Source: Pachysolen tannophilus NRRL Y-2460
Lineage: Eukaryota
NCBI GenBank assembly: GCA_001661245.1
Contig: KV454012.1
Span: 1,074,848-1,138,847 of the forward strand
Reading direction: 5' to 3'
Length of the DNA: 64,000 nt
The translations under genes were made by a program, and so were the position numbers. Shown here one piece after another: positions 2,890-56,251 of the stretch (within the stretch, counting starts at the first letter, position 1; each line of letters starts with the position of its first letter). The notes below the pieces were generated by a model. That model searched no databases. It saw only the letters and a list, made by a program, of their open reading frames with translations, and had not been told where the DNA came from.

Positions 2890-5247
2890 ATGAACTTCTT
2901 TAATCAGAACAATTTAGTAACTCAACAACATGGTGATGTTGGTATTGTTTGGTATGTTTTCAATTGTATTAATTATTTTTTTTTGATTTTTTATTTTGAC
3001 TATTTGTTTGTTCCCTTTGTTTAGTAAACAAATTTTAACCCGGTACAAACCTAGTATATCACATAAGAACAAAATACTAACTGACTTGTGAAAACTATAT
3101 GGGGTGAAGGTTATTGGCAACTTTGGGCTCAAAATCAGCTCATAAGAAAGTTGTGAAGAAAGATATCATGAATGTTTCAATCCCATCTACATGCAAGACT
3201 ATTTCAGATCCACCCCAGCCATTGGCTTTAAGATTGAGCTCTAATTTATTATATGGAGTCACATTGGTTTATAGACAACAGACTGAGTATTTCTATGGTA
3301 AGTATTGGTGAAAACAAAAGAATGAATGAATGAAATTTAATTGGATCTTAACTAACATGAATTTATTTTTAAGCTGATACAACTGTTGCGAGGACGAGAC
3401 TTTCTAAAGGGTTTTTATCTAAAAATATGAAGGATGTTCATTTAACAGTTCCAAATATTATTGAACTACCAGTACTTAATATTTTTGAAAATGATAATAA
3501 TAAGCAGACTATTCTGACTGAATCTAATGAACAAATTCAGATTCTGCAAATATCCAAAAATTCAATAATGACAAACAGGGTTTTCCTTAACGATGATCCA
3601 TTGTTTAATGTTGAAATTGATTTATTACCAGAATTGACATTTGATGATATTAAACAAGATTCTGATGTTGTAGAAGTCCTAAAAAGAAAAGAAAAAATTG
3701 CTGCAAATGATCTCTTGAACAAAGTTGTAGCAATCAATACGAGTAAAAGGGGGAATGATTTAGATTTTACAACTATTAACTTAGATGTTGATATCACAAA
3801 TGACAATAGTGGAAACTTGCCTCAATTATTACCAGAAAGATTAAATGATGGGAATGATTTCCTTAATGTTAATAATTTACATGATGATTTAAATTTTGCA
3901 GTTAATGACGAAGATGAATTGTTGATAAATTTAGATGGAAGTAGTCAAATTGATTTCAACGCAAGACTTTCTAGTACTAGAAATAATACAAGTAGAATTA
4001 ATTCTAGAGCACCTTCTGTTTTACCAGATGTTGGTGAAGGTGTACCATTAGAATTTGAAAACGATTTTGATTTACCTGATTTTAGAACAAGTCAAGAAGA
4101 AAATAGAGATATGAATGCCGAAATGATTGCGGCTCAAGATAGACAAGGAAATAAAGTATCTCTTGTACAGAATGAAGATCAAAGTAAACCAAAACAACAG
4201 AGGGTGAAAAGACGTAAAGGTCTTAACACAATTCAAATTGATGATTCAATTATTTTATCTACAAAAGATTTGAGAAATTCCCTGAATGAATACATTGATA
4301 TTCAAATGGATGAAATTAATAAAAAATTTATATTGAAAAATAAATCCATTAATTTTGCTTATATTGATGCAAACCAAAGGTTTGAAAAAATTGAAGAATT
4401 ATTACAAAATCAAAATGATAATGAAATAGATAAAATTGTCGATGACTATTATAATTCTCCACTTAATTGTTTTAAAAGGGTTAAAACAAATAACATGAGT
4501 GATTTACAAGAAGAACCAGAATTTGATGTAGCCAATGTTTCAATAGAAATTCTGCGCGGTCGGCAAGTATTGAGAAGAAGAAGATCTTCATCTGCTTCTA
4601 TTGAAATTGGTAGAAATAACAATCAAAGTAGATCTAGATCTAGGTCTGCTTCAGATGTTATTAATTTTGAAATGTTAAACGATTTTGCTAATGACCGCAG
4701 ACTAGGTGGGTTTTCGAACGAAAATTTTATGGAATTTGGTGATTTTGGGGAACTTGGTGATTTTGAAAGAGAAGGTAATGATTTTGGACTGGGAGATGTA
4801 ACAGGAAGCGGAAGAAGAGGAAGAAGAAATTCAGTTGGTGGATTATTTAGAGATTCTTTTAGGGGACAGCGCTCTAGGTCAGAATCTCTGGGAAGAAGAA
4901 GAAGTTCTGGATTTAGAGACTTCTCCAAGAGAAGTACAAACACAGTTGTACAAACTTTTAATGAAGAGAATAATACTGATTCTTTAAGTTCTTATCATGT
5001 TCTTTATGATTATTTACTGAATTTAAAGATAGAATTATTAGATAGTGAAAAGAACTCTTCTAATGAAGCAGTAAACAAAGGACTTGAGAACGAAGGTGTT
5101 ATTATTCACTTTGATAAAATCTTACCTCAAAATATTACCAAGAGTAATGTTGTCAAAAATTTTTATAAATTATTAGAAATTGCAACCAGAGGATTATGTG
5201 ATTTGAAAAATGATGATTTTGGGGGTGTCGAAATCTTCATTTATTAA
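2890..5247 (+). CDS. REC8: Meiotic cohesin kleisin Rec8; exons 2890-2951, 3110-3297, 3374-5247
   Basis: Splicing gives MNFFNQNNLVTQQHGDVGIVWLLATLGSKS...LALRLSSNLLYGV (Rad21/Rec8 N-terminal domain) and a C-terminal FYKLLEIATRG winged-helix motif. Intron 1 2952-3109 (GTATGT, TACTAAC 3075-3081, AAG); intron 2 3298-3373 (GTAAGT, AACTAAC, AAG); frames join correctly. Confidence 0.85.
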
Positions 5248-7239: not shown

Positions 7240-8617
7240 TTAAGATTTTGTCTTCTTAGCACTACTATTTGAAGTTTCTTGTATTGTTCTCTTTTTAGGG
7301 TTTGTAAATTGAAGTTTCTCCAAGATTCTTAAATAGTCTTCTTCAAGTCTTTCATAAGCTGTTTGTAATTTATCTAATCTTGTTGGTTTATCTAATTCTA
7401 AGAGTGCATCTTTATTTTTATATATAATCTTTTCTTTATTTGCAATCTAATTTTTTTGTTGATAATTGTAGCAGTAATGGATTTTTTGAATCAAATTTTT
7501 TCATATATAATAATGCCATTTCACAACATCTTTGAAGTTGTCTTTTATCTAGTTTTAATTGTTTTTCTTTTAAATCTAACCATTTTTTAGAAATAGGTAG
7601 ATTTAATTTGGCTACTTCTTCGAAAAACCCAATCAGGTGTAATCTTTCTAAATCACATCTATCACGAAGATCATCAAATGATTCATTTGGATCTTCTATA
7701 GCAATACTTTTGGCATGTTTATCATTCAACCAATGATCAACCATTGCATTATATAAATGTTTACCATGACCTTTTTGTTGATATGGTGGTAACACCACAA
7801 ATTGTGAAATTTTTTTATTTGAATCTAACATTGATTCTTCTGATAGATCATATTCATTAAAACCAGGATAACGGAAATAAGAATACAGAGTACAAAAACC
7901 AACAAATGATGGGCGTGAAGAGAATGATGATGATGATGATTTTTTTATAGTAGAAGTCTTATATAAAAAATAAAGTTCCCATGATAAATCAGATTTATCA
8001 ATATATGATCCCAGTTCTATGAAAAATAATACAAAAATTTGCATTCTAAGATGTAATTTTAAAGCTTCATCATCTTTAAAACATGTTTTATAAATACTAA
8101 AAATTTCACCATTTTCATCTTTATATTCTTTTATTAATTCACCAGGAATTTTAAAAAAATTCAGCTCTTGATTTTTTTTATCAACCCATTTTGATTCATC
8201 TTTTAAAATAGTAGATTCAGGTAAATATTCCATTAATTTTTTTTCTGGATCTTCAATATCAACATTTGGTAATTTTTCAGAGTATGAAACATTTAAAAAT
8301 GGTAATAAAGTAGTTGAATCAAAGGCAAGATTAATCTTAAGGTCCTGATATCCAAAGATTTGCTCTGCATCACCAAAAATAGGATAAGTAAATGCAGGAT
8401 GAAACTTGAAAGCACCTTCTTCTTCAGCTGGACAAATAAACAATTAAATGGGAACTTGTTAATAAAAAAAGCCACAGCTATAAAAAAAAAAAAACAATTC
8501 AATTCAAATTGAAAATTACATACCTAATGACAATGTTAAAGCATCATTGGAAGAAGCTGTCCAAACTTCTGGAGCAAATGAAGCAATGTCAACAGCAACC
8601 GATGACGAAGATGACAT
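7240..8617 (-). CDS. HAT1: Histone acetyltransferase type B catalytic subunit; exon 1 8617-8524, intron 8523-8428, exon 2 8427-7240 with an apparent -1 frameshift at the A7 run (7451-7457)
   Basis: Exon 1 encodes PEVWTASSNDAL; GTATGT donor, TATTAAC branch-like site, CAG acceptor; FHPAFTYPIFGD, ISQFVVLPPYQ..GHG and EDPNESFDDLRDRCD motifs; the conserved tail IRLQIKKRLYIKNKDAL..KLQTAYERLEEDY is in the -1 frame and ends at TAA 7240-7242. Confidence 0.88.
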
Positions 8618-16325: not shown

Positions 16326-18060
16326 ATGAATGGCGGTATGTATTTGATTTTTTAATGATTAATTGTGTGTTCTTTTCGTCTGGTTAAATTTTTTTTGTTT
16401 TTTTCTCTTTATAAATCAAGATTTATGAAGGCAATAACAAATAATTTGTCTTGAGTTATTAGAAAATATCCATGATTTGGATCAATCAATCTATCAATGG
16501 GTTATGATCCCAATGAATTGAATTAAAAATGTGATCTGAATTGTTGTGTTGCAAGTTCGTATGTCTTGCGTAGTCTGCGGCCACGTCAGTCTCATTTTTA
16601 CAAACAACAAAAAAAAAGAAAAGGTATCAAGAAACTAAGAAAACACACGATAAATCTAATTAAATTTTTATTTTTATTATTATTTACAATACTAACAGTT
16701 TTAATTCAATTCAATTCAATTGATTGAATTTTTTTTTTTGCCATATACAGAAGACGTTACTGCTGTATGTATTTTCTAATAATTGATTTATTTGAATCAG
16801 GTCTTAATCTTGTTTCATACACACTATTTTTCATTTATTTGCCTCTTTATAGAATAGAAAAATTGTCGTTCTATATAGGGCAAGATAAGTAGTGTACCGG
16901 ATACGGGGGAAAAAAAAAATACTAACTAAAATTTTTTAATATGAAATATTTAGGTCGTTATCGATAATGGTTCAGGTATGTGTAAAGCTGGTTTTGCCGG
17001 TGATGACGCTCCTCGTGCTGTTTTCCCATCTATTGTTGGTAGACCAAGACACCAAGGTATTATGGTTGGTATGGGTCAAAAAGATTCTTATGTTGGTGAT
17101 GAAGCTCAATCCAAGAGAGGTATTTTAAGTTTACATTATCCAATTGAACATGGTATTGTTACTAATTGGGATGATATGGAAAAAATTTGGTATCATACTT
17201 TTTATAATGAATTACGTATTGTTCAAGAAGAACTTCCTGTTTTATTGACTGAAGCTCCAAAGAATCCAAAATCTAACAGAGAAAAAATGACTCAAATTAT
17301 GTTTGAAACTTTTAATGTTCCAGCATTTTATGTTTCTATTCAAGCTGTTTTGTCCTTGTATTCTTCTGGTAGAACTACTGGTATCGTTTTAGATTCCGGT
17401 GATGGTGTTACTCACGTTGTTCCAATTTATGCTGGTTTCTCTTTACCACATGCTATTTTACGTATTGATTTAGCTGGTAGAGATTTAACCGATTATTTGA
17501 TGAAAATTTTGGCAGAACGTGGTTATCCTTTCTCAACAACTGCAGAACGTGAAATTGTTCGTGATATTAAAGAAAAATTATGTTATGTTGCTTTAGATTT
17601 TGATCAAGAATTACAAACTTCATCTCAATCTTCAGCTATTGAAAAATCATATGAATTACCAGATGGTCAAGTCATCACTATTGGTAATGAAAGATTTAGA
17701 GCTCCAGAAGCTTTATTCAACCCAGCCGCTTTAGGTTTAGAAGCTGCAGGTATTGATCAAACCACTTATAATTCTATTATGAAGTGTGATGTTGATGTCA
17801 GAAAAGAATTGTACGGTAACATTGTTATGTCAGGTGGTACTACCATGTTCCCAGGTATTGCTGAAAGAATGCAAAAGGAAATTACTGCTTTGGCTCCATC
17901 ATCCATGAAAGTTAAGATCATTGCTCCTCCAGAAAGAAAATACAGTGTCTGGATCGGTGGTTCTATCTTGGCTTCTTTATCTACTTTCCAACAAATGTGG
18001 ATCTCAAAACAAGAGTACGACGAATCTGGACCATCAATTGTTCACCACAAGTGTTTCTAA
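16326..18060 (+). CDS. ACT1: Actin; exons 16326-16335, 16751-16764 (14-nt microexon), 16954-18060
   Basis: Two GTATGT..TACTAAC..YAG introns (16336-16750, 16765-16953) give [34 protein letters not shown]...HHKCF. Confidence 0.95.
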
Positions 18061-30899: not shown

Positions 30900-32477
30900 T
30901 TAAATGAAGTCGAAATCACTACCATCCTGTAAGTAATTCAACAAATCTTGTTCTCTTTCCTTTGACTCCAAATCATTTTTCAAGTTTATTCTATTGTTAT
31001 TCATTGGATAACGCATAGCTTTGACACTATCATTGTGTAAGGACATGCAAAACTTGATACGCAGGTCATATATTTCTTGAGGTTCTTTTGTTGAATAAAC
31101 ATCGAGTAATTCTTTACTTTGCATAAAACCTTCCTCATGGTTTATTTCTGCATCTAATACACCATCTCTTATTGCTTTGGCGACAATATATTCTGCACTT
31201 AATTCACTATCCAAGTGTAATTTTATGCAAATATCTCTCAATGAAATTTTTGAATAAGATAACGATAAGATTCTAATACCTGTTTTAATGACATTTTGAC
31301 GTAATCTTAAAACCAAATTATAATTATCATCTTTTTTCAAAGTTGCAGAATATTTATCTAAAGTACTACTAAACAAATTTAAATCTCCTAATCTAACTGC
31401 TTTAGTTACCGCCAAATAAGGAACTAATGATTGTTCCAATAATGGGTCTCTAAAAGTTGATAATTCTGGAATATCACCCATCAATAATTCCACAACAATA
31501 TTTAATTTAGTAGCACTCTGTAAAAATCCTGTTGAAAATTTTGATTGAGGAGATTTTCTAATAGCGGAAATAGCAAATTCATGAGCATCTGAATAATTTA
31601 ATTGAATAGCAGTAATTCTTGCCAAATAATAATAATAACGAGCAACTAATGAATTTGAAACAGTAGTTGGAAATTCAGTTTTTTCCACCAAGTTTGAAGC
31701 CTGACTTATATCATTAGTCAACAAATAATTTCTTAAAAGTAAAGTTATTGTTGAAGCTCTTGTTTCATTATCATGACGTAAAGTTGCAGTACGTAATGCC
31801 AATAATAATTCCGATCTAATTGGAACCAATTTATTTAACAATTCATTTGTTCTCAGAATATAAAACCAAACTTTTGATGCAATAAAATCTAAAGTTCTTC
31901 TATTGTAACTTTTCAAGGCAATTACAACTTTTTTATTTAATTGATTTAATTTTTTTAAATCATTTTGATCATGAAGATAAATTTGTACTAATAAATGAGT
32001 AAAAATATCCAATTCAGGTAAAATTTCTTGGTCTCCTTGCATCTCCACATCATTATCTTTATCTCTATCTCCTTCATCAATTTCCATAGATCCATTTTCA
32101 TATCTTACATTATCCAATAAATATGCCTTATTTGGATGATCATTAGGATATTTTGCATCAATGGCCTTATACAAAGCTTCACTTGTCAATTTACGTCTCA
32201 AAGGACCCAATTCACGGAAAACTCTTAAAATATAACGTGGATCAAAATTCGTTGCCGATTTCTCAATTAAATTAAAATCATTATTAATTTCTACTCAAAA
32301 GAAAAAAAAAAAAAAATAAATTAGTTAGTTAGTAACAAAGAACTCAAAACAAATTAAAATTTAATTTTTTTNTTTTTTTTTTAAAATAAAATATCATTTT
32401 CAATCCCACTTACCTTCAATTAACAACGGCTCTAAATCAACATTATTCAACTCTGGCTTCGAAATTACTTCAGACAT
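30900..32477 (-). CDS. RPN3: 26S proteasome lid subunit Rpn3; exons 32477-32414 and 32290-30900
   Basis: Intron 32413-32291 (GTAAGT, TACTAAC, TAG); FDPRYILRVFR, YNRRTLD, LLLRNYL, ARYYYY, ELLMGDIPE, RLRQNVIKTGIR, KAIRDGV. Confidence 0.94.
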
Positions 32478-40642: not shown

Positions 40643-41022
40643 NNNNNNNNNNNNNNNNNNNNNNNNNNNNNNNNNNNNNNNNNNNNNNNNNNNNNNNNNN
40701 NNNNNNNNNNNNNNNNNNNNNNNNNNNNNNNNNNNNNNNNNNNNNNNNNNNNNNNNNNNNNNNNNNNNNNNNNNNNNNNNNNNNNNNNNNNNNNNNNNNN
40801 NNNNNNNNNNNNNNNNNNNNNNNNNNNNNNNNNNNNNNNNNNNNNNNNNNNNNNNNNNNNNNNNNNNNNNNNNNNNNNNNNNNNNNNNNNNNNNNNNNNN
40901 NNNNNNNNNNNNNNNNNNNNNNNNNNNNNNNNNNNNNNNNNNNNNNNNNNNNNNNNNNNNNNNNNNNNNNNNNNNNNNNNNNNNNNNNNNNNNNNNNNNN
41001 NNNNNNNNNNNNNNNNNNNNNN
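40643..41022. other. Assembly gap
   Basis: N run flanked by poly(A). Confidence 0.99.
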
Positions 41023-43794: not shown

Positions 43795-44142
43795 TCGGCA
43801 AGGTTTCCTTAATTTCTTTATTTATTTATTTATTCCTACTTGAGACTTCTATCAACCATTATTTATTTATTTATTTATTTATTTATTAATCTATTTATCT
43901 TGAATTACAATCATATCATTTTATTGAATTGAATTTGTAGAAGTAAATTGCATAAAGAAGAGTTGAAATTAAAATTAAAATAAAAAAAAAAATTTTAATA
44001 AAAAGAAAAAAAGAAAGGTAGGAGGAGGTTCAAAATGATCTATATTCTTTTTTATCATTTAGTCTATGTTTAATATATATAAATATTCTTTTTAATTCCA
44101 ATAATTTTCCATTTTAAACTGAGCGATATTTTTGCTTTGATT

Positions 44143-45882
44143 ATGGATTGGAATAGAAATCTTTTAATACTATTGTTAATTGCAGTTAGGGTTTATTGTG
44201 TATTTAATGGTATAATATCAGATTGTGATGAAGTATTTAATTATTGGGAGCCATTAAATTTAATTTTACGAAATTTTGGTAAACAAACTTGGGAGTATTC
44301 ACCTATTTATTCAATTAGATCATGGGCATATTTAATTCCTTATTCAACATTATCATATCCTTTTATTCATATTTTTAACAATGTTAACTTGTTTTATTTC
44401 GTAAGATTCTTATTATGTGGTTTTACAACTATTGCAGAATTGAAATTATTTAATACCATATACTACAAGATTAATAAGAAATTAGGATATTGGTTTTTAC
44501 TATTACAAGCCATTAACCCTGGTATGTCACATGCTTCAATTGCATTATTACCATCTAGTCTTGCAATGAATTCCGAATTTTTCACATTAAGCTATTTAAT
44601 AGATTATTTGCTTAATGATGAAGATAATAATGGGTTTAAAATTATATTTTGGTATTCAATAGGTGGATTACTTGGTTGGCCATTTTATCTTGTTATGACA
44701 CTCGTTTTTGTTGCTTATTATACTCTGGTAAATCTTATTGAAAGAAAGTTTCTAAAAATTTTAAAATTTGGAATTTTTGCAATTTTCATCTCTTCATCAA
44801 TATTATCTTTAATTGTTTTCATTGATTCATCATTATACCAAAAATTTGTTATTGTTCCTCTTAATATCGTTCTTTATAATGTTGTAAATGCAAGTGAAAA
44901 AAGTGGACCAGCAATATTTGGAGTTGAACCTGTTAGTTATTACATTTTGAATTTATTACTAAATTTTAATATTAGTGGTATATTGGGTTATTTAGGTATA
45001 ATAATATCACCATTATTAAATATTTTCCAAAAATCAGATAATAATTTAAAAATATTTAACGAAAATGCTAGATTGTTGACAATATTATTACAGTTGATTT
45101 TATGGTCACTGATTTTCTTTTCACAACCTCATAAAGAAGAAAGATTTTTATATCCAATTTATCCATTAATTAATTTAAGTTCTTCAATCTTAATCTTCAA
45201 AATTTTTCAAATTTTTGACCTTGTGTTAGCTATTGTTATAAAGGCCAGAATTATTAGAAGAATTATTAAAAAATTATCGTTATTTGTTAGTGTATTGATA
45301 ATATCAACTATATCACTATTAAGAATCATATCGTTAATTGAAAACTATTCAGCTCCATTGAAAGTTTACTCACATCTCCCACAGAATATAACAGATGTAA
45401 AGGAAAATGTCAATGTTTGCGTTGGTAGAGAATGGTATCATTTTCCATCATCATTTTTCTTACCAACACATTCAAGATTGAAATTTATAAAATCATCATT
45501 TAACGGATTATTACCTGGTGATTTTCTTGAAAGCTTTTCTTTAAAAGAAACAATATCTACTATACCCCCAAATATGAATAACGAAAATATTTTCGAAGAA
45601 GATAAGGTATTAACAAATATGGAAAGCTGTCAATTCTTCATTGATATTGATCAGGAAGTTGACTTTGAAAATGGCGAGCTGCCAATTATTCAAAAATCCA
45701 ATACTGGAGAACTTCTTATAGATAAGAACTGGGAAAAGAAATATTGCGGAAAATTAATTAATGCTGATGAAAGTTATGGAATTGGTAGATTGATATATAT
45801 TCCAGAAAGATTCCATGAGATTTTTAAAACTAAAGTTTCATACTTTAATTACTGTTTAGTGGAAAGAAAAGAAATTAAGTAA
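44143..45882 (+). CDS. ALG9: Alpha-1,2-mannosyltransferase Alg9
   Basis: [61 protein letters not shown] 44143. Confidence 0.95.
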
Positions 45883-45933
45883 TGACAAGATTTAACCTAA
45901 TGTATAGAAAATTTCTAGATATATTTATATATA

Positions 45934-46966
45934 AAGCAAAAGGTTTAAAATGTCGTGATAGATTATTCTTATCATCTAGAGCTCATTTAGTTTTTGATTT
46001 TCATCAAAGAACTGATAAATTAAAAGAACTGGAATTGAGTGAAAATCAAAAAGCAATAGGTACTACTGGTAAAGGTATTGGTCCAGCTTATTCTACAAAA
46101 GTTTCAAGATCAGGTATTAGAGTTCATCATTTAGTTAGTGATGAACCTGATTCTTGGAAAGAATTTGAAATTAGATTAAAAAGATTAATCGATACTAGAA
46201 AAAAAGATATGGTGAATTTGATTGTGATTTACAAACTGAATTACTGGAATATAAAATATTACGTGAAAAGATTAAACCATTCGTTGTTGATTCTGTTGAT
46301 TTTATTCATTCTGCTTTACAACAGAAAAAGAAAATCTTAATTGAAGGTGCTAATGCATTGATGTTGGATATCGATTTTGGTACTTATCCTTACGTTACAT
46401 CTTCAAACACCGGTATAGGTGGTGTTCTTACAGGGTTAGGTATTCCACCACAAGCTATAAGAAACATTTATGGTGTTGTTAAGGCTTATACTACAAGAGT
46501 CGGTGAAGGTCCATTTGCAACTGAACAATTGAATGAAGTTGGTGAAAAATTACAAGACCTTGGTGCTGAGTTTGGTGTCACCACTGGTAGAAAGAGAAGA
46601 TGTGGATGGTTAGATTTGGTTGTCTTGAAATATTCAACTTTTATTAACGGATATACTTCTTTAAACATCACCAAATTAGATGTATTGGATACTTTTAAAG
46701 AAATTAAAGTTGCTATCTCATACAGTTATAAAGGTGAAAAATTATCTAGTTTCCCTGAAGATTTACATAAATTGAGTAAAGTTGATGTGGAATATGTAAC
46801 ATTACCTGGTTGGAATGAGGATATTACCAAAATTAGAAATTATGAAGATTTACCAGAAAATGCAAAGAAGTATTTGAAATTTATTGAAGACTATCTTAAT
46901 GTTCCTATCCAATGGGTCGGTACTGGTCCAGGAAGAGAAAGCATGTTGGAAAAATCAATCAACTGA
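45934..46966 (+). pseudogene. ADE12: 3' part (residue 86 to the end) of adenylosuccinate synthetase, on the opposite strand to its 5' part, with a -1 frameshift at the A7 run 46199-46205
   Basis: [39 protein letters not shown]; then in the shifted frame [70 protein letters not shown]. Confidence 0.9.
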
Positions 46967-47112
46967 AATAGTTTAAGAGTTATTTGATTTCTTATGAATT
47001 TCTGTCGGTTTCTGTTGTTTTCTTTTTTTCTTATCTTTTTTATTTTTATTTTTATTTTTTTGTAGTTTTTGATTCTTGTCTTTGTCTCTTAAGTTTTCTT
47101 ATATTTTAAATC

Positions 47113-47368
47113 CTAAATTTTCCAATTCAGAGAAAAAAGAAGGTAAATTAACAACAACACCTGAACCAACTAAATTAAGACAATTTGGATTAACTAAACC
47201 AGAAGGAAGCATATGAAAATCATATTTAACATCACCAACAACAATAGTATGTCCAGCATTATTACCACCCTGACATCTTGCACAAACATCAATGTCATCA
47301 CATAAAATATCAACCAACTTTCCCTTACCTTCGTCCCCCCATTGAGCTCCTAATACAACATCAGCCAT
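47113..47368 (-). pseudogene. ADE12: 5' part (85 codons) of adenylosuccinate synthetase; runs into a premature stop (GFKI*, 47099) after the breakpoint
   Basis: [20 protein letters not shown] (P-loop), [15 protein letters not shown], ending [10 protein letters not shown]. Confidence 0.92.
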
Positions 47369-47571
47369 ATTCAAAAGTATCCTAATATCTATTTAAAAAT
47401 TAAAATACTTTTTTTTGTTTCTTCTTCTTCTACTATCTTTTAATTTGAACGCAATGTTAACAAAACGTTACCAACCAAAACCGAAAAAAAAAAAAAAATT
47501 TTTTTTGTTAAAAGATTCAATACTAATCTTTAAATATATAATTAAGCAAACAAACAAACAAACGAACAACC

Positions 47572-47711
47572 TGACTCACAACAAAATTTACTAACTACCT
47601 TATACCTAGGCCTACCTTAACCTTTCTTTTCTTTGACCTATAAGAATCCAATCACTCACACATACAAATTGTAATTTTAGACGCACATGAAAATTTTTAA
47701 AAAATTGACTC
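47572..47711. promoter_or_regulatory. TGACTC(A) sites (Gcn4/Bas1 type) in the ADE12 promoter
   Basis: TGACTCA at 47572-47578 and TGACTC at 47706-47711, 200-340 bp upstream of the ATG, typical of purine genes. Confidence 0.55.
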
Positions 47712-48160
47712 TGACTTCCCATTTTGTGCTTTTGAACACGACTTCTGATTTTTCTTCACCTTCTCCACGGTTCGGTAGGTGAAACCAAGAGAGACCGAGC
47801 TGCAGCAACAGCAGCATCAAGTCCTGCTGATGCTGCTGCTGATATTGTTGTAGCTAATGCATAGGAAATTAAATATATAAGCATATAGTATATAGATAGG
47901 TATTTATTTATAAAAGTTATAAAAGAAAACAGTATATACGAATAAAAAATAGGGTATCGATATATATATATATTTAATTCATATATATATGATTCTAAAC
48001 GAAATAAAAAGGATTATAGAAAAGTTAAACCAAAAACCACCATGTAGTTCAAAAGAATCTCAAAAGTTAAAATAAAAAAAATAATATATAGACAGAAGAA
48101 AGCTTTCTGTCCGTTTATCCAAAAAACTTTTTTTTTTTTTTTTTTTTTTTTTTCTTTCTT

Positions 48161-48456
48161 NNNNNNNNNNNNNNNNNNNNNNNNNNNNNNNNNNNNNNNN
48201 NNNNNNNNNNNNNNNNNNNNNNNNNNNNNNNNNNNNNNNNNNNNNNNNNNNNNNNNNNNNNNNNNNNNNNNNNNNNNNNNNNNNNNNNNNNNNNNNNNNN
48301 NNNNNNNNNNNNNNNNNNNNNNNNNNNNNNNNNNNNNNNNNNNNNNNNNNNNNNNNNNNNNNNNNNNNNNNNNNNNNNNNNNNNNNNNNNNNNNNNNNNN
48401 NNNNNNNNNNNNNNNNNNNNNNNNNNNNNNNNNNNNNNNNNNNNNNNNNNNNNNNN
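48161..48456. other. Assembly gap
   Basis: N run flanked by poly(T). Confidence 0.99.
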
Positions 48457-48474
48457 TTTTTTCCTTTTTTCCAA

Positions 48475-48505
<31 letters not shown>

Positions 48506-48540
48506 CTTCTTTCGTTTTTTTTTTTTGCTAATAATTTTTT

Positions 48541-48586
48541 CACCACTCACCACTCACCACTCACCATTTACCATTCACCATTCACC
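48541..48586. repeat. 7-bp tandem repeat (CACCACT/CACCATT) just downstream of the SUN gene
   Basis: caccact caccact caccact caccatt taccatt caccatt cacc. Confidence 0.75.
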
Positions 48587-48622
48587 AGTGCCAGTACTGG
48601 GTACCAAGTTTTCTAGTTGAAA

Positions 48623-49795
48623 TTAGTAAAAGACAAATTTTGCAGTTGATCCAGAAGGAACAGAAGCTGTACAACCATCAGTTGAATCACCAGAGAAAGA
48701 ACCATCAACATAAGAACAAGCACCACTAATTGTACCTGTAGCTGAAGTAATCTTAACACTGTAATTTGGAGCATCAGAATTGTTTGGATTTGGAATCAAA
48801 GATAAATAAGTGATACCATCAATGTATCCAGCACCCAAGACAACTGGAGCCCAATTACCAACACCAGAACCAGAAGTTCCCCAAATACAACCATCTTCAA
48901 CAGAAACACCTGCATTGTTAACATAATATTGAGCAGAAGTTTCTTTACCTTCCCATTGATAATAAGTACTTTCATTGACAACACTAATTGGTTTTGATCC
49001 ACCAGCAGATAATAAAGTTGGAACAACCATACTTTCAGAACCTGGATAATCAGTTCTACAAAGAGCAACATCATCAGTAAGTTGAGAAACAGCCTTGGCA
49101 GTATCAGCACCCCATTCACATAAATAATTTGAATCAGAATTTGATTTATACAAGTAACCATCTTTACAATACAAACCACCAACTGAAATACCACTTGAAG
49201 GTTGAGAAGAAGGCCATTGAGTCTTTGACATACCAGCTTGACAAGCATAAGAACAATAATAACCATCTTCACAAGAAGTTGCAGTGTTACCACTTTCATC
49301 CATGATTGAAGCCCAGCCATTATAATCTAACCAATCTAAAGCAATGACACCTTGACCTGATGGGAAATCAGAACAACTAACAGTACCATCTTCAAATTCT
49401 TCAGTTGGATTTTCAAAATCACTTAAATCACCTGAAATATCCGAAGTATCAGATGATGATGATGATGATGATGATGAAGAGGAAGTTGATGATGAAGTAG
49501 AACTTTCTGTAGAAGTAGCACTAGAAGAAGAGGAAGAAGCCTCTGAACTTGAAGTTGAAGTGGCTTCAGAGAAACTTGAAGTAGAAGATTCTTTTTCTGG
49601 AGCAGATGTGGATGTAGCATCACCAACACTAATACTGGTTGAAACACCACCTTGTGCACCTGCAGTGACAATAACAGTTTCAGTAACGTATTCGTAAACT
49701 GGTGCTCTCTTGTGCATGTTGTGGTGGTGTTGCAATGGGACCGAGGCAACAACTGAGGCCAAGGCCAAAACTGATAAAACTGAAGTAGATTTCAT
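48623..49795 (-). CDS. SUN-family secreted cell-wall beta-glucanase-like protein (Uth1/Sim1/Sun4/Nca3)
   Basis: Signal peptide, HHHNMHKR Kex2 site, Ser/Thr linker; [57 protein letters not shown]. Confidence 0.93.
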
Positions 49796-51388: not shown

Positions 51389-52126
51389 NNNNNNNNNNNN
51401 NNNNNNNNNNNNNNNNNNNNNNNNNNNNNNNNNNNNNNNNNNNNNNNNNNNNNNNNNNNNNNNNNNNNNNNNNNNNNNNNNNNNNNNNNNNNNNNNNNNN
51501 NNNNNNNNNNNNNNNNNNNNNNNNNNNNNNNNNNNNNNNNNNNNNNNNNNNNNNNNNNNNNNNNNNNNNNNNNNNNNNNNNNNNNNNNNNNNNNNNNNNN
51601 NNNNNNNNNNNNNNNNNNNNNNNNNNNNNNNNNNNNNNNNNNNNNNNNNNNNNNNNNNNNNNNNNNNNNNNNNNNNNNNNNNNNNNNNNNNNNNNNNNNN
51701 NNNNNNNNNNNNNNNNNNNNNNNNNNNNNNNNNNNNNNNNNNNNNNNNNNNNNNNNNNNNNNNNNNNNNNNNNNNNNNNNNNNNNNNNNNNNNNNNNNNN
51801 NNNNNNNNNNNNNNNNNNNNNNNNNNNNNNNNNNNNNNNNNNNNNNNNNNNNNNNNNNNNNNNNNNNNNNNNNNNNNNNNNNNNNNNNNNNNNNNNNNNN
51901 NNNNNNNNNNNNNNNNNNNNNNNNNNNNNNNNNNNNNNNNNNNNNNNNNNNNNNNNNNNNNNNNNNNNNNNNNNNNNNNNNNNNNNNNNNNNNNNNNNNN
52001 NNNNNNNNNNNNNNNNNNNNNNNNNNNNNNNNNNNNNNNNNNNNNNNNNNNNNNNNNNNNNNNNNNNNNNNNNNNNNNNNNNNNNNNNNNNNNNNNNNNN
52101 NNNNNNNNNNNNNNNNNNNNNNNNNN
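51389..52126. other. Assembly gap
   Basis: N run in the long SUN upstream region. Confidence 0.99.
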
Positions 52127-53479: not shown

Positions 53480-56044
53480 TTATTTTTGTTTTCTAAAATC
53501 TTCAGTTTTATCGTCTATAATTAAAAATGAATTATCAATTTTCCACACGTCATTGAACCTGGCAACCATTTCATCTAGATTTAAAGTATTCTTGGCTCTA
53601 ATCAATTCCCATTGTTCATTTAAATTACTGTTATCTATGATATATAATTTTTTGAAACATAATTTTAATTCTTTTTTCAATTTTGACTCATTTATGTAAA
53701 TATTATACTTATCTGATAATTCCAATAAATATCTTAAATACTCATAAGGCTCGTAAGATTTCTCTCTCAAATTTAAAAATCCATTTTTAATAATCTCTGA
53801 TATTACTTTATCAGAAAATAAAATTCTTAAAGGATGATTAATATTGAAATGATTTAATTTGTATTTTAAATTTTTCTCATCTTTTAAAATTAATTGAACT
53901 AAATAATTAGAAAAAGTTTCAATTTCTTGTAATGAATTAACATTCAACGACGCAATTAATAATTTTCTCCAAGTATTTATACTAACGGAATCCTTATCCA
54001 ATTGGTAACATTTGATCAATTGTTTTAAAGAATTATAGATGAAATTCTTATTAGAATTGGAAACTTGATTCATATTTACAAATTCATCTTCAAATTCAAG
54101 AAGTTCCAAATTATTATTATTTTTAAAAATTCTACCAGTTACCGTCTCGACAAGTGCGTGTGAAACTTTTTCATTGATTTTTAATTTATAACTAGAATTT
54201 CCATTATTAAAAGTTTCAATATTTTTAATAAGATTGTCAAATTTCAAAAAACATTGTTCTACTTGATCCATCTTTAATTTGAAAAGTATAATTGCACTTT
54301 CTAATTCAACAATCTTTTGTTTGTCATAAAAATCTAACTCAATTTTTTTACTTATCCTTTTATCTTCATCATAATTGTTATGTAAAATATCATTAATATA
54401 ATAATCTAGTTCATAACAATAATTCAATTTATCATATTTACTCAATATTGTTGATTTAACGTTTAATAATCCTTTTAAAAATCCTTTCAGTAATTCAACA
54501 TTTGTCTTGATGAAAAAATTATTATTATTTGAAATGCTGGTAACTTTACTCATCTGAGAAAATTGTTTTAATACTTTGAACGATTCATTAATTCTTGAAT
54601 GAATGTTATTCATATCATTTGGAAAACTATGACTAATCAAAATTTTAATGAATACTCCTAAAACTTTTGCTGGTATATTGAGAACAATTTTTTTTTCTTT
54701 ATAAATCGCTTCCTTGTAGTTAATTAAAGAATCAAAATTTTTCATAAAAATATTATGATCATGACTTGATTTCAAACATCTTATCGAATATATATCTAAA
54801 GTCTCTTTGATATTGTACAGTTTCATTAAATCATTGATATACCTAATGTCTATACATTCAGAGGTTTCATTTAACTCAGTTAATTCTTTAAAATGAATTT
54901 TTTCAATGACATTGAACCAAAACTCCTCATCATAAATAAAGGGATGTTTACTGAATGTCAACAATAAAAAATCTAAATATTCAGTTTGATTCTTGATTTC
55001 TTGAAAATTGAAAGCGTTTATAAATATGTTGATAAACTTTTTAGATGCCCATCGCTTATGATTGACTTTTAAATTGTTTTTTTTATCATTAAGAGAATTC
55101 AAAACATGTAGAATTGATTTATGAAACTTGAAATTCAACAGCATTTGCATAAGCAGAAATAAATAATCTTCTGAATCCTCGGGTAAATCACCCAACCTTA
55201 TCAACATATTGTTCCATGAAATCAAATAGTTAAAGTCATCATAATTGTGGAATAAAAATGGAATTATATGTCCATAAAATCCATCTCTTGTTAAATCCAA
55301 AGTTTTATGAATCTTCAATAAAAATTTCAAACATGAGATGGAATCATCATGTAACATACAAGTTTGGATAATAGGAAGCCAATTAATAGTAATATTTCCA
55401 GAAGTAATCAAAGAATATAATTTTTGATGAGTCAATGCTGCTAAATCATACCTAGTTGATTCCAAAGATGATATTAACATCAATTCATAAAATTTGGATA
55501 AGCTGAAAACAGATTTATAATTATTCAAAGATTTAACAGTATTAACTATTAAGGGCAAGATCACTCTTTCATATAAATTATCATCCATTAGGGATAATTG
55601 AACTGTCAACCTCCAAAATATAAAACTATTAAAATTTTCATCACCGTTGTTCTTTAACGTTTTTAAATACTCAGAAAACAATCGGACATTATTATCAGAT
55701 GAGTATTGAAGCCATTTATACTTCACCGTATTAAAATTAGATTGATCTGTTTGATAAACTGGTAACTCTAATAAATCCCTGGATGAATTGAACGGCAATT
55801 TTTTATTTTTGTGCAATTTCAGCTTCAAAGTAACATTCTCCTTTAACTTGGGAAAATATTGTGAAGCAGAAGAAATGCTGAACTTATCGTTGTTTAAAAT
55901 ACTTGAATCAATATTCTTCAAATCCAGTATCAAGTTTTCACTATCGGTAAAAGACGATGTACTATAGTATTGATAATTGTGCCGTCCCACCTTGAAATTT
56001 ATAGCTGGACATATCATCCTATTCTTGAATATTATGCGCCTCAT
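53480..56044 (-). CDS. Uncharacterised protein, probably mitochondrial (possibly PPR/helical-repeat)
   Basis: 854-codon ORF; Arg-rich, acid-free N-terminus resembling a presequence; no motif recognised with confidence. Confidence 0.55.
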   Translation of the reverse strand: MRRIIFKNRMICPAINFKVGRHNYQYYSTSSFTDSENLILDLKNIDSSILNNDKFSISSASQYFPKLKENVTLKLKLHKNKKLPFNSSRDLLELPVYQTDQSNFNTVKYKWLQYSSDNNVRLFSEYLKTLKNNGDENFNSFIFWRLTVQLSLMDDNLYERVILPLIVNTVKSLNNYKSVFSLSKFYELMLISSLESTRYDLAALTHQKLYSLITSGNITINWLPIIQTCMLHDDSISCLKFLLKIHKTLDLTRDGFYGHIIPFLFHNYDDFNYLISWNNMLIRLGDLPEDSEDYLFLLMQMLLNFKFHKSILHVLNSLNDKKNNLKVNHKRWASKKFINIFINAFNFQEIKNQTEYLDFLLLTFSKHPFIYDEEFWFNVIEKIHFKELTELNETSECIDIRYINDLMKLYNIKETLDIYSIRCLKSSHDHNIFMKNFDSLINYKEAIYKEKKIVLNIPAKVLGVFIKILISHSFPNDMNNIHSRINESFKVLKQFSQMSKVTSISNNNNFFIKTNVELLKGFLKGLLNVKSTILSKYDKLNYCYELDYYINDILHNNYDEDKRISKKIELDFYDKQKIVELESAIILFKLKMDQVEQCFLKFDNLIKNIETFNNGNSSYKLKINEKVSHALVETVTGRIFKNNNNLELLEFEDEFVNMNQVSNSNKNFIYNSLKQLIKCYQLDKDSVSINTWRKLLIASLNVNSLQEIETFSNYLVQLILKDEKNLKYKLNHFNINHPLRILFSDKVISEIIKNGFLNLREKSYEPYEYLRYLLELSDKYNIYINESKLKKELKLCFKKLYIIDNSNLNEQWELIRAKNTLNLDEMVARFNDVWKIDNSFLIIDDKTEDFRKQK

Positions 56045-56251
56045 ATGTGCTTTCTATCGGTCCATTCATATCTATCTATCCATCTAACTATCTATTGTTT
56101 TTGTATAACATACGTTTAAAGCGGTTGATAATAAAATTAATTGATAATTGAATTAAATTGCCTAAAATGAAAACATTAAAAAAAATGAAGTATTTTATTT
56201 TTAAAATTTATTAAATAAATCAGTTAAATTGCCGTAATAAGAGAAGACGAT

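Follow-up and report, generated by a model that had tools for sequence, protein, structure and literature searches.

Adenylosuccinate synthetase, Ade12 in yeast and PurA in E. coli, is an enzyme whose solved relatives include 5i33, 2v40, 1iwe and 1ade. We take the GDEGKGK P-loop, GGNNAGHT and (N/T)KxD to be its GTP-binding and IMP-site motifs. For a gene that is found in two opposite orientations, two known situations serve as comparison. Small pieces are often misoriented in scaffolds. In the yeast Ogataea polymorpha, mating-type switching is described in PMC5701183 as a flip-flop inversion that uses long flanking inverted repeats.

In the window, that is, the whole stretch of 64,000 nucleotides that was analysed, ADE12 is present as two pieces that lie on opposite strands and point towards each other. 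The features of the locus are as follows.

44143–45882, plus strand: gene for an Alg9-like mannosyltransferase (GT22), the left neighbour (PF03901, E 2e-84)
45934–47112: inverted segment of 1,179 nt, flipped with respect to both the gene and the public contigs
45934–46966, plus strand: remaining piece of ADE12, which begins with the second base of codon 86 and includes the stop, its frame broken by the loss of 1 nt in an A run
46199–46205, plus strand: A7 run that shifts the frame, with one A more in the contigs of the public runs X3 and X5
46967–47112, plus strand: T-rich 3' flank of ADE12, which travels within the inverted segment
47113–47368, minus strand: N-terminal piece of ADE12, codons 1–85 and the first base of codon 86 (PF00709 profile positions 1–82, E 1.6e-38)
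47369–47760, minus strand: upstream region of ADE12 with two TGACTC words
48161–48456: run of 296 N, 1 kb to the right of the right junction, with long T runs on both sides
48623–49795, minus strand: SUN-family gene, a neighbour

The minus-strand piece, read from 47368 to 47113, gives 256 nt by reverse complement, made up of codons 1–85 and one G, and ends in the residues SELENL. On the plus strand, the letters from 45934, AA GCA AAA GGT, read (E)AKG, and the remainder of ADE12 follows up to the stop at 46964–46966. Residue 86 is the codon cut by the junction, its first base lying in the minus-strand piece and its last two in the plus-strand piece. When the 1-nt frame shift at the A7 run is corrected, 256 + 1033 + 1 nt make 430 codons including the stop, and the joined protein has 429 amino acids. 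The earlier note had described this anatomy from the letters, namely the 85 codons and a G on one strand, the rest on the other, the A7 shift and the length of 429 residues, and its description is exact, the reading frames, PF00709 and BLASTP all agreeing with it. A side product of the inversion is a false ORF of 152 amino acids at 45882–46340 on the plus strand. It starts at an ATG overlapping the stop codon of the Alg9-like gene and reads on, in frame, through ADE12 residues 87–175.

Three pieces match the PF00709 profile (adenylosuccinate synthetase, 416 positions) at 1–82, 85–162 and 174–415; their scores of 133, 75 and 355 bits exceed the curated cut-off of 27, and the family is matched over the whole profile. 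In BLASTP against six full-length yeast Ade12 proteins, the pieces were placed at residues 1–85, 87/88–175 and 175/176–428; the alignments were free of gaps for five of the six proteins, and the sixth had a gap of 4 residues in the middle piece. Identity of the pieces to Ade12 from Komagataella, Ogataea and Candida boidinii is 83–91%. For the C-terminal piece, the best relatives among the candidates scored, which did not include the protein of the species itself, are 83–84% identical. GDEGKGK and GGNNAGHT are found in the minus-strand piece, GIGPAY in the middle piece and TKLD in the C-terminal ORF. Upstream of the gene, the earlier note had pointed to TGACTC promoter sites, a word that is the core Gcn4/Bas1 site of yeast ADE promoters. 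Two copies are indeed there (47572–47577 and 47706–47711), but the word is not enriched across the window, with 18 occurrences versus 16.8 expected.

One conceivable reading has both halves produced from the convergent genes and combining into a working adenylosuccinate synthetase. The in-frame ATG at 45882 does open an ORF into the plus-strand piece, but the frameshift stops this ORF at 46340, and residues 176–428 are not made from it. Moreover, the plus-strand piece starts 51 nt behind the stop of its neighbour and lacks its own promoter region, a codon is split by the cut, and the 120 listed relatives are all single proteins, mostly of 423–445 amino acids. A functional split enzyme, which had been among the proposals of the earlier note, is therefore ruled out in the window by the frameshift of the plus-strand piece, and we regard it as the least credible explanation of the locus.

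Five public sequencing runs bear on the arrangement itself. Four are from a sample of 2010–2011 (S1) and one is from a sample of another study (S2, 2023). Contigs of four of these runs (X1, X2, X3 and X5, where X3 belongs to sample S1 and X5 to sample S2) were compared with positions 44000–49000 of the window. X3 and X5 each yielded one contig that joins 45934 to 47113 on opposite strands; the X3 contig is 2,172 nt long with a depth of 67, the X5 contig 1,529 nt with a depth of 121. Contig letters 57–1133 match the minus strand of the window from 47009 to 45934, and the letters from 1134 on match its plus strand at 47113–47470; positions 47010–47071 were skipped as a repeat in this comparison, and the public contigs begin about 56 nt beyond 47009. 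The joint has zero intervening letters, its shorter side is 255 letters long, and it is exactly the junction that restores ADE12. The sole gap between these contigs and the window is an A added behind 46198, by which A7 becomes A8 and the frameshift is removed. A single uninterrupted ADE12 frame, which the inversion and the frameshift break in the window, is thus present in the contigs of X3 and X5 at both the junction and the A run. Since there are 0 other differing letters over 1,076 + 358 nt (1,434 nt), the samples come from the same strain as the window or nearly so. The depths of 67 and 121 resemble those of adjacent contigs (58–81 and 89–130, respectively).

Read-derived sequence therefore contradicts the assembled junction in two of the four runs, representing two samples and two studies, and the organism as sampled in these studies has an intact ADE12 junction and the A8 run at full depth. 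The view that the event is recent or reversible, which the earlier note had taken, is contradicted by this full-depth intact form in two samples. The same note had stated that support for the intact orientation only would indicate an assembly artefact, and this is what was found in X3 and X5 as far as contigs can show, since contigs drop rare variants and a minor inverted form could be missed. The two other runs, X1 and X2, gave only chance pieces of 18–28 nt on 44000–47470 and no ADE12 contig. The junctions in the window form (45933/45934 and 47112/47113) are crossed by no contig of the four runs; 45217–45933 is without any contig, and such holes prove nothing. The second junction of the intact form (45933 beside the complement of 47112) lies outside the coverage of the contigs of all four runs.

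Other differences between the window and the contigs are small. From 47471 to 47576, across an A15T8 tract, the X3 contig has 108 letters versus 106 in the window. At 48082–48083, beside an A run, the window has TA and the contigs of X1, X3 and X5 have AT. All differences are of the type of assembly or consensus errors, plus this one swap of two adjacent letters. The five runs contain 0.93 of the sampled words of 45400–47900 (248 sampled words), and this share is equal in all of them, including those of S1, which is the likely, not the established, source sample of the assembly. The window's words are thus as well represented in the independent sample as in the likely source sample. Roughly estimated, about 5% of the words would be lost at the two junctions together with the A run and the A15T8 tract, a loss that would be compatible with a share of 0.93 at 248 words.

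The junctions were also inspected for traces of recombination. None of the 25 listed of 582 inverted pairs is an inverted repeat with an arm at each junction. Inverted local alignment of 120 nt around each junction gave a score of 14; shuffled sequences scored 14.8 on average, and 14 was reached in 325 of 500 shuffles. No direct or inverted repeat linking the two junctions was found. The breakpoints cannot be shifted by even one base in either direction, so microhomology is absent, and both joins are seamless, in unique sequence and free of N. The earlier note had drawn attention to copies of GAAAATTT at 45907–45914 (plus strand) and 47115–47122 (minus strand). These copies exist, but they form an inverted and not a direct pair, and with 27 matches in the window against 27.75 expected the word occurs at chance frequency and therefore carries no weight.

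These results bear on the idea of an intragenic invertible switch, in which 45934–47112 would flip and turn AMP synthesis off and on, and on its variant, in which one allele of a diploid would be inverted. Two orientations are indeed seen across data sets, the one in the window and the other in the contigs of X3 and X5. However, the borders lack inverted repeats, as the shuffles show, and the 44 ORFs of the window include no recombinase, integrase or transposase family at a Pfam E-value of at most 1e-5. The copy in the window is frameshifted, so that flipping it back would not restore the enzyme. In addition, the contigs of X3 and X5 run unbroken through the junction, and this speaks against another form at high abundance, for example a heterozygous allele or a mixed culture. 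The switch that the earlier note had envisaged thus finds neither border repeats nor a recombinase among the 44 ORFs, and we consider it very improbable.

Since intact contigs were obtained from two samples, the split most likely reflects a faulty record rather than biology. We estimate a probability of about 0.85 that the split ADE12 is an artefact of the assembled record, through misassembly or later rearrangement. Misassembly or artificial rearrangement had been the last alternative of the earlier note, and the intact junction with A8 in X3 and X5 favours it. According to this explanation, the minus strand of the organism's DNA would carry an ordinary intact ADE12 of 429 codons, and this gene would be convergent (tail to tail) with the Alg9-like gene. 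The record would hold 45934–47112 the wrong way round and one A too few in the A8 run. The cause may be that a gapped draft was misassembled and also received a consensus error, or that the sequence was rearranged at some point after assembly. We infer from the contigs that the window form is absent from the cells.

Several features of the window are in line with an artefact. The joined ADE12 is colinear with its relatives, no residue being gained or lost. The junctions have no repeat or microhomology that cellular recombination would use. The window, which is AT-rich with a G+C content of 28.7%, is part of a draft scaffold with five N runs (32372, 40643–41022, 48161–48456, 51384 and 51389–52126). 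On the other hand, the cut at codon 85/86 is placed in unique sequence without N, and it is not obvious why an assembler would break or flip a piece there. Open frames with full-length Pfam matches are seen for about 27 genes of the window. All of the 37 A/T runs of at least 7 that lie in other open coding DNA (41.9 kb) are in phase and the sole ADE12 run is broken, although this count is somewhat circular because the frames were picked for being open. In a record that is accurate elsewhere, the occurrence of two defects in the same gene suggests a shared local cause. It is possible that a 1.18-kb piece came from poor data and was put in reverse, that the sequence was altered after assembly, or that the assembled culture had a real dead gene.

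The last of these possibilities can be put as follows. A clean end-joining inversion of 1,179 bp inside codon 86, with a later slip in a homopolymer, would have made the assembled culture a spontaneous adenine auxotroph, the gene staying intact in other cultures of the strain. Breakpoints free of repeats in unique sequence fit breakage and end joining and do not fit an assembler, and the sole broken homopolymer of the 38 examined sits inside the inverted gene, as in a dead gene that gains a second lesion. However, two samples of two studies show the intact gene with A8, which is otherwise identical over the 1,434 nt, and one of them dates from 2010–2011 and may be the source. No run is richer in the window's words than the others, and differences of the homopolymer type also occur outside ADE12. 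A real lesion is therefore unlikely, and we retain the error of the record as the preferred explanation.

The rest of the window was examined as well. At the N run of 48161–48456, the sequence ends alike on both sides, with CCAAAAAA, about 27 T and CTT (window 48100–48520); two contig ends probably overlap there in one long T run which the assembler could not cross. Single N letters stand at 32372 and 51384, one of them about 80 nt upstream of an RPN3-like gene (30903–32294, minus strand), and they are either one-letter gaps or uncalled bases. Further genes that were suspected of being split proved not to be: no family was matched by the small ORFs beside HAT1, the SIR2-like gene, the Na/Ca exchanger, GRIM-19 and RAD54. 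The HAT1 homologue (7439–8443, minus strand) lacks the first 24 profile positions, and upstream of it the letters GTATGT, TTATTAAC and AG follow in this order. Judging from these splice-like letters, the gap is probably an intron of about 96 nt at 8428–8523 (minus strand) and not a frameshift. The frame of the actin gene (16954–18057, plus strand) starts at profile position 7 of 410, as expected with a short first exon upstream of an intron. Two open frames of 624 and 857 amino acids, at 3373–5244 (plus strand) and 53483–56053 (minus strand), have no Pfam family at an E-value of at most 1e-5.

The arrangement in the record has practical consequences. Gene callers working on it would report ADE12 as missing or fragmented and could add the false chimeric protein of 152 amino acids. 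A wrong inference of adenine auxotrophy for this yeast could follow. If the inversion were real, it would be a rare clean intragenic knockout of a core purine gene or a new type of metabolic switch. In the matched texts of the literature pairing ADE12 with inversion, no inversion within ADE12 was found among the matches listed.

In conclusion, the locus can be placed beside three known systems. As in the adenylosuccinate synthetases Ade12 of yeast and PurA of E. coli, the ordered pieces of the window span the whole PF00709 profile; unlike the known enzymes, the gene in the window consists of two opposed pieces with a frameshift, a difference that disappears in the contigs of X3 and X5. With the flip-flop switches of yeasts such as Ogataea polymorpha it shares a segment that is seen in two orientations, but the ADE12 segment has no flanking repeats and interrupts a housekeeping gene within a codon. 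Local inversion errors in draft scaffolds are usually bounded by gaps or repeats, whereas the ADE12 joins are seamless in unique sequence. The likeness to such errors lies in a flip of about 1.2 kb in a gapped draft, accompanied by an error in homopolymer length and contradicted by contigs built from reads.
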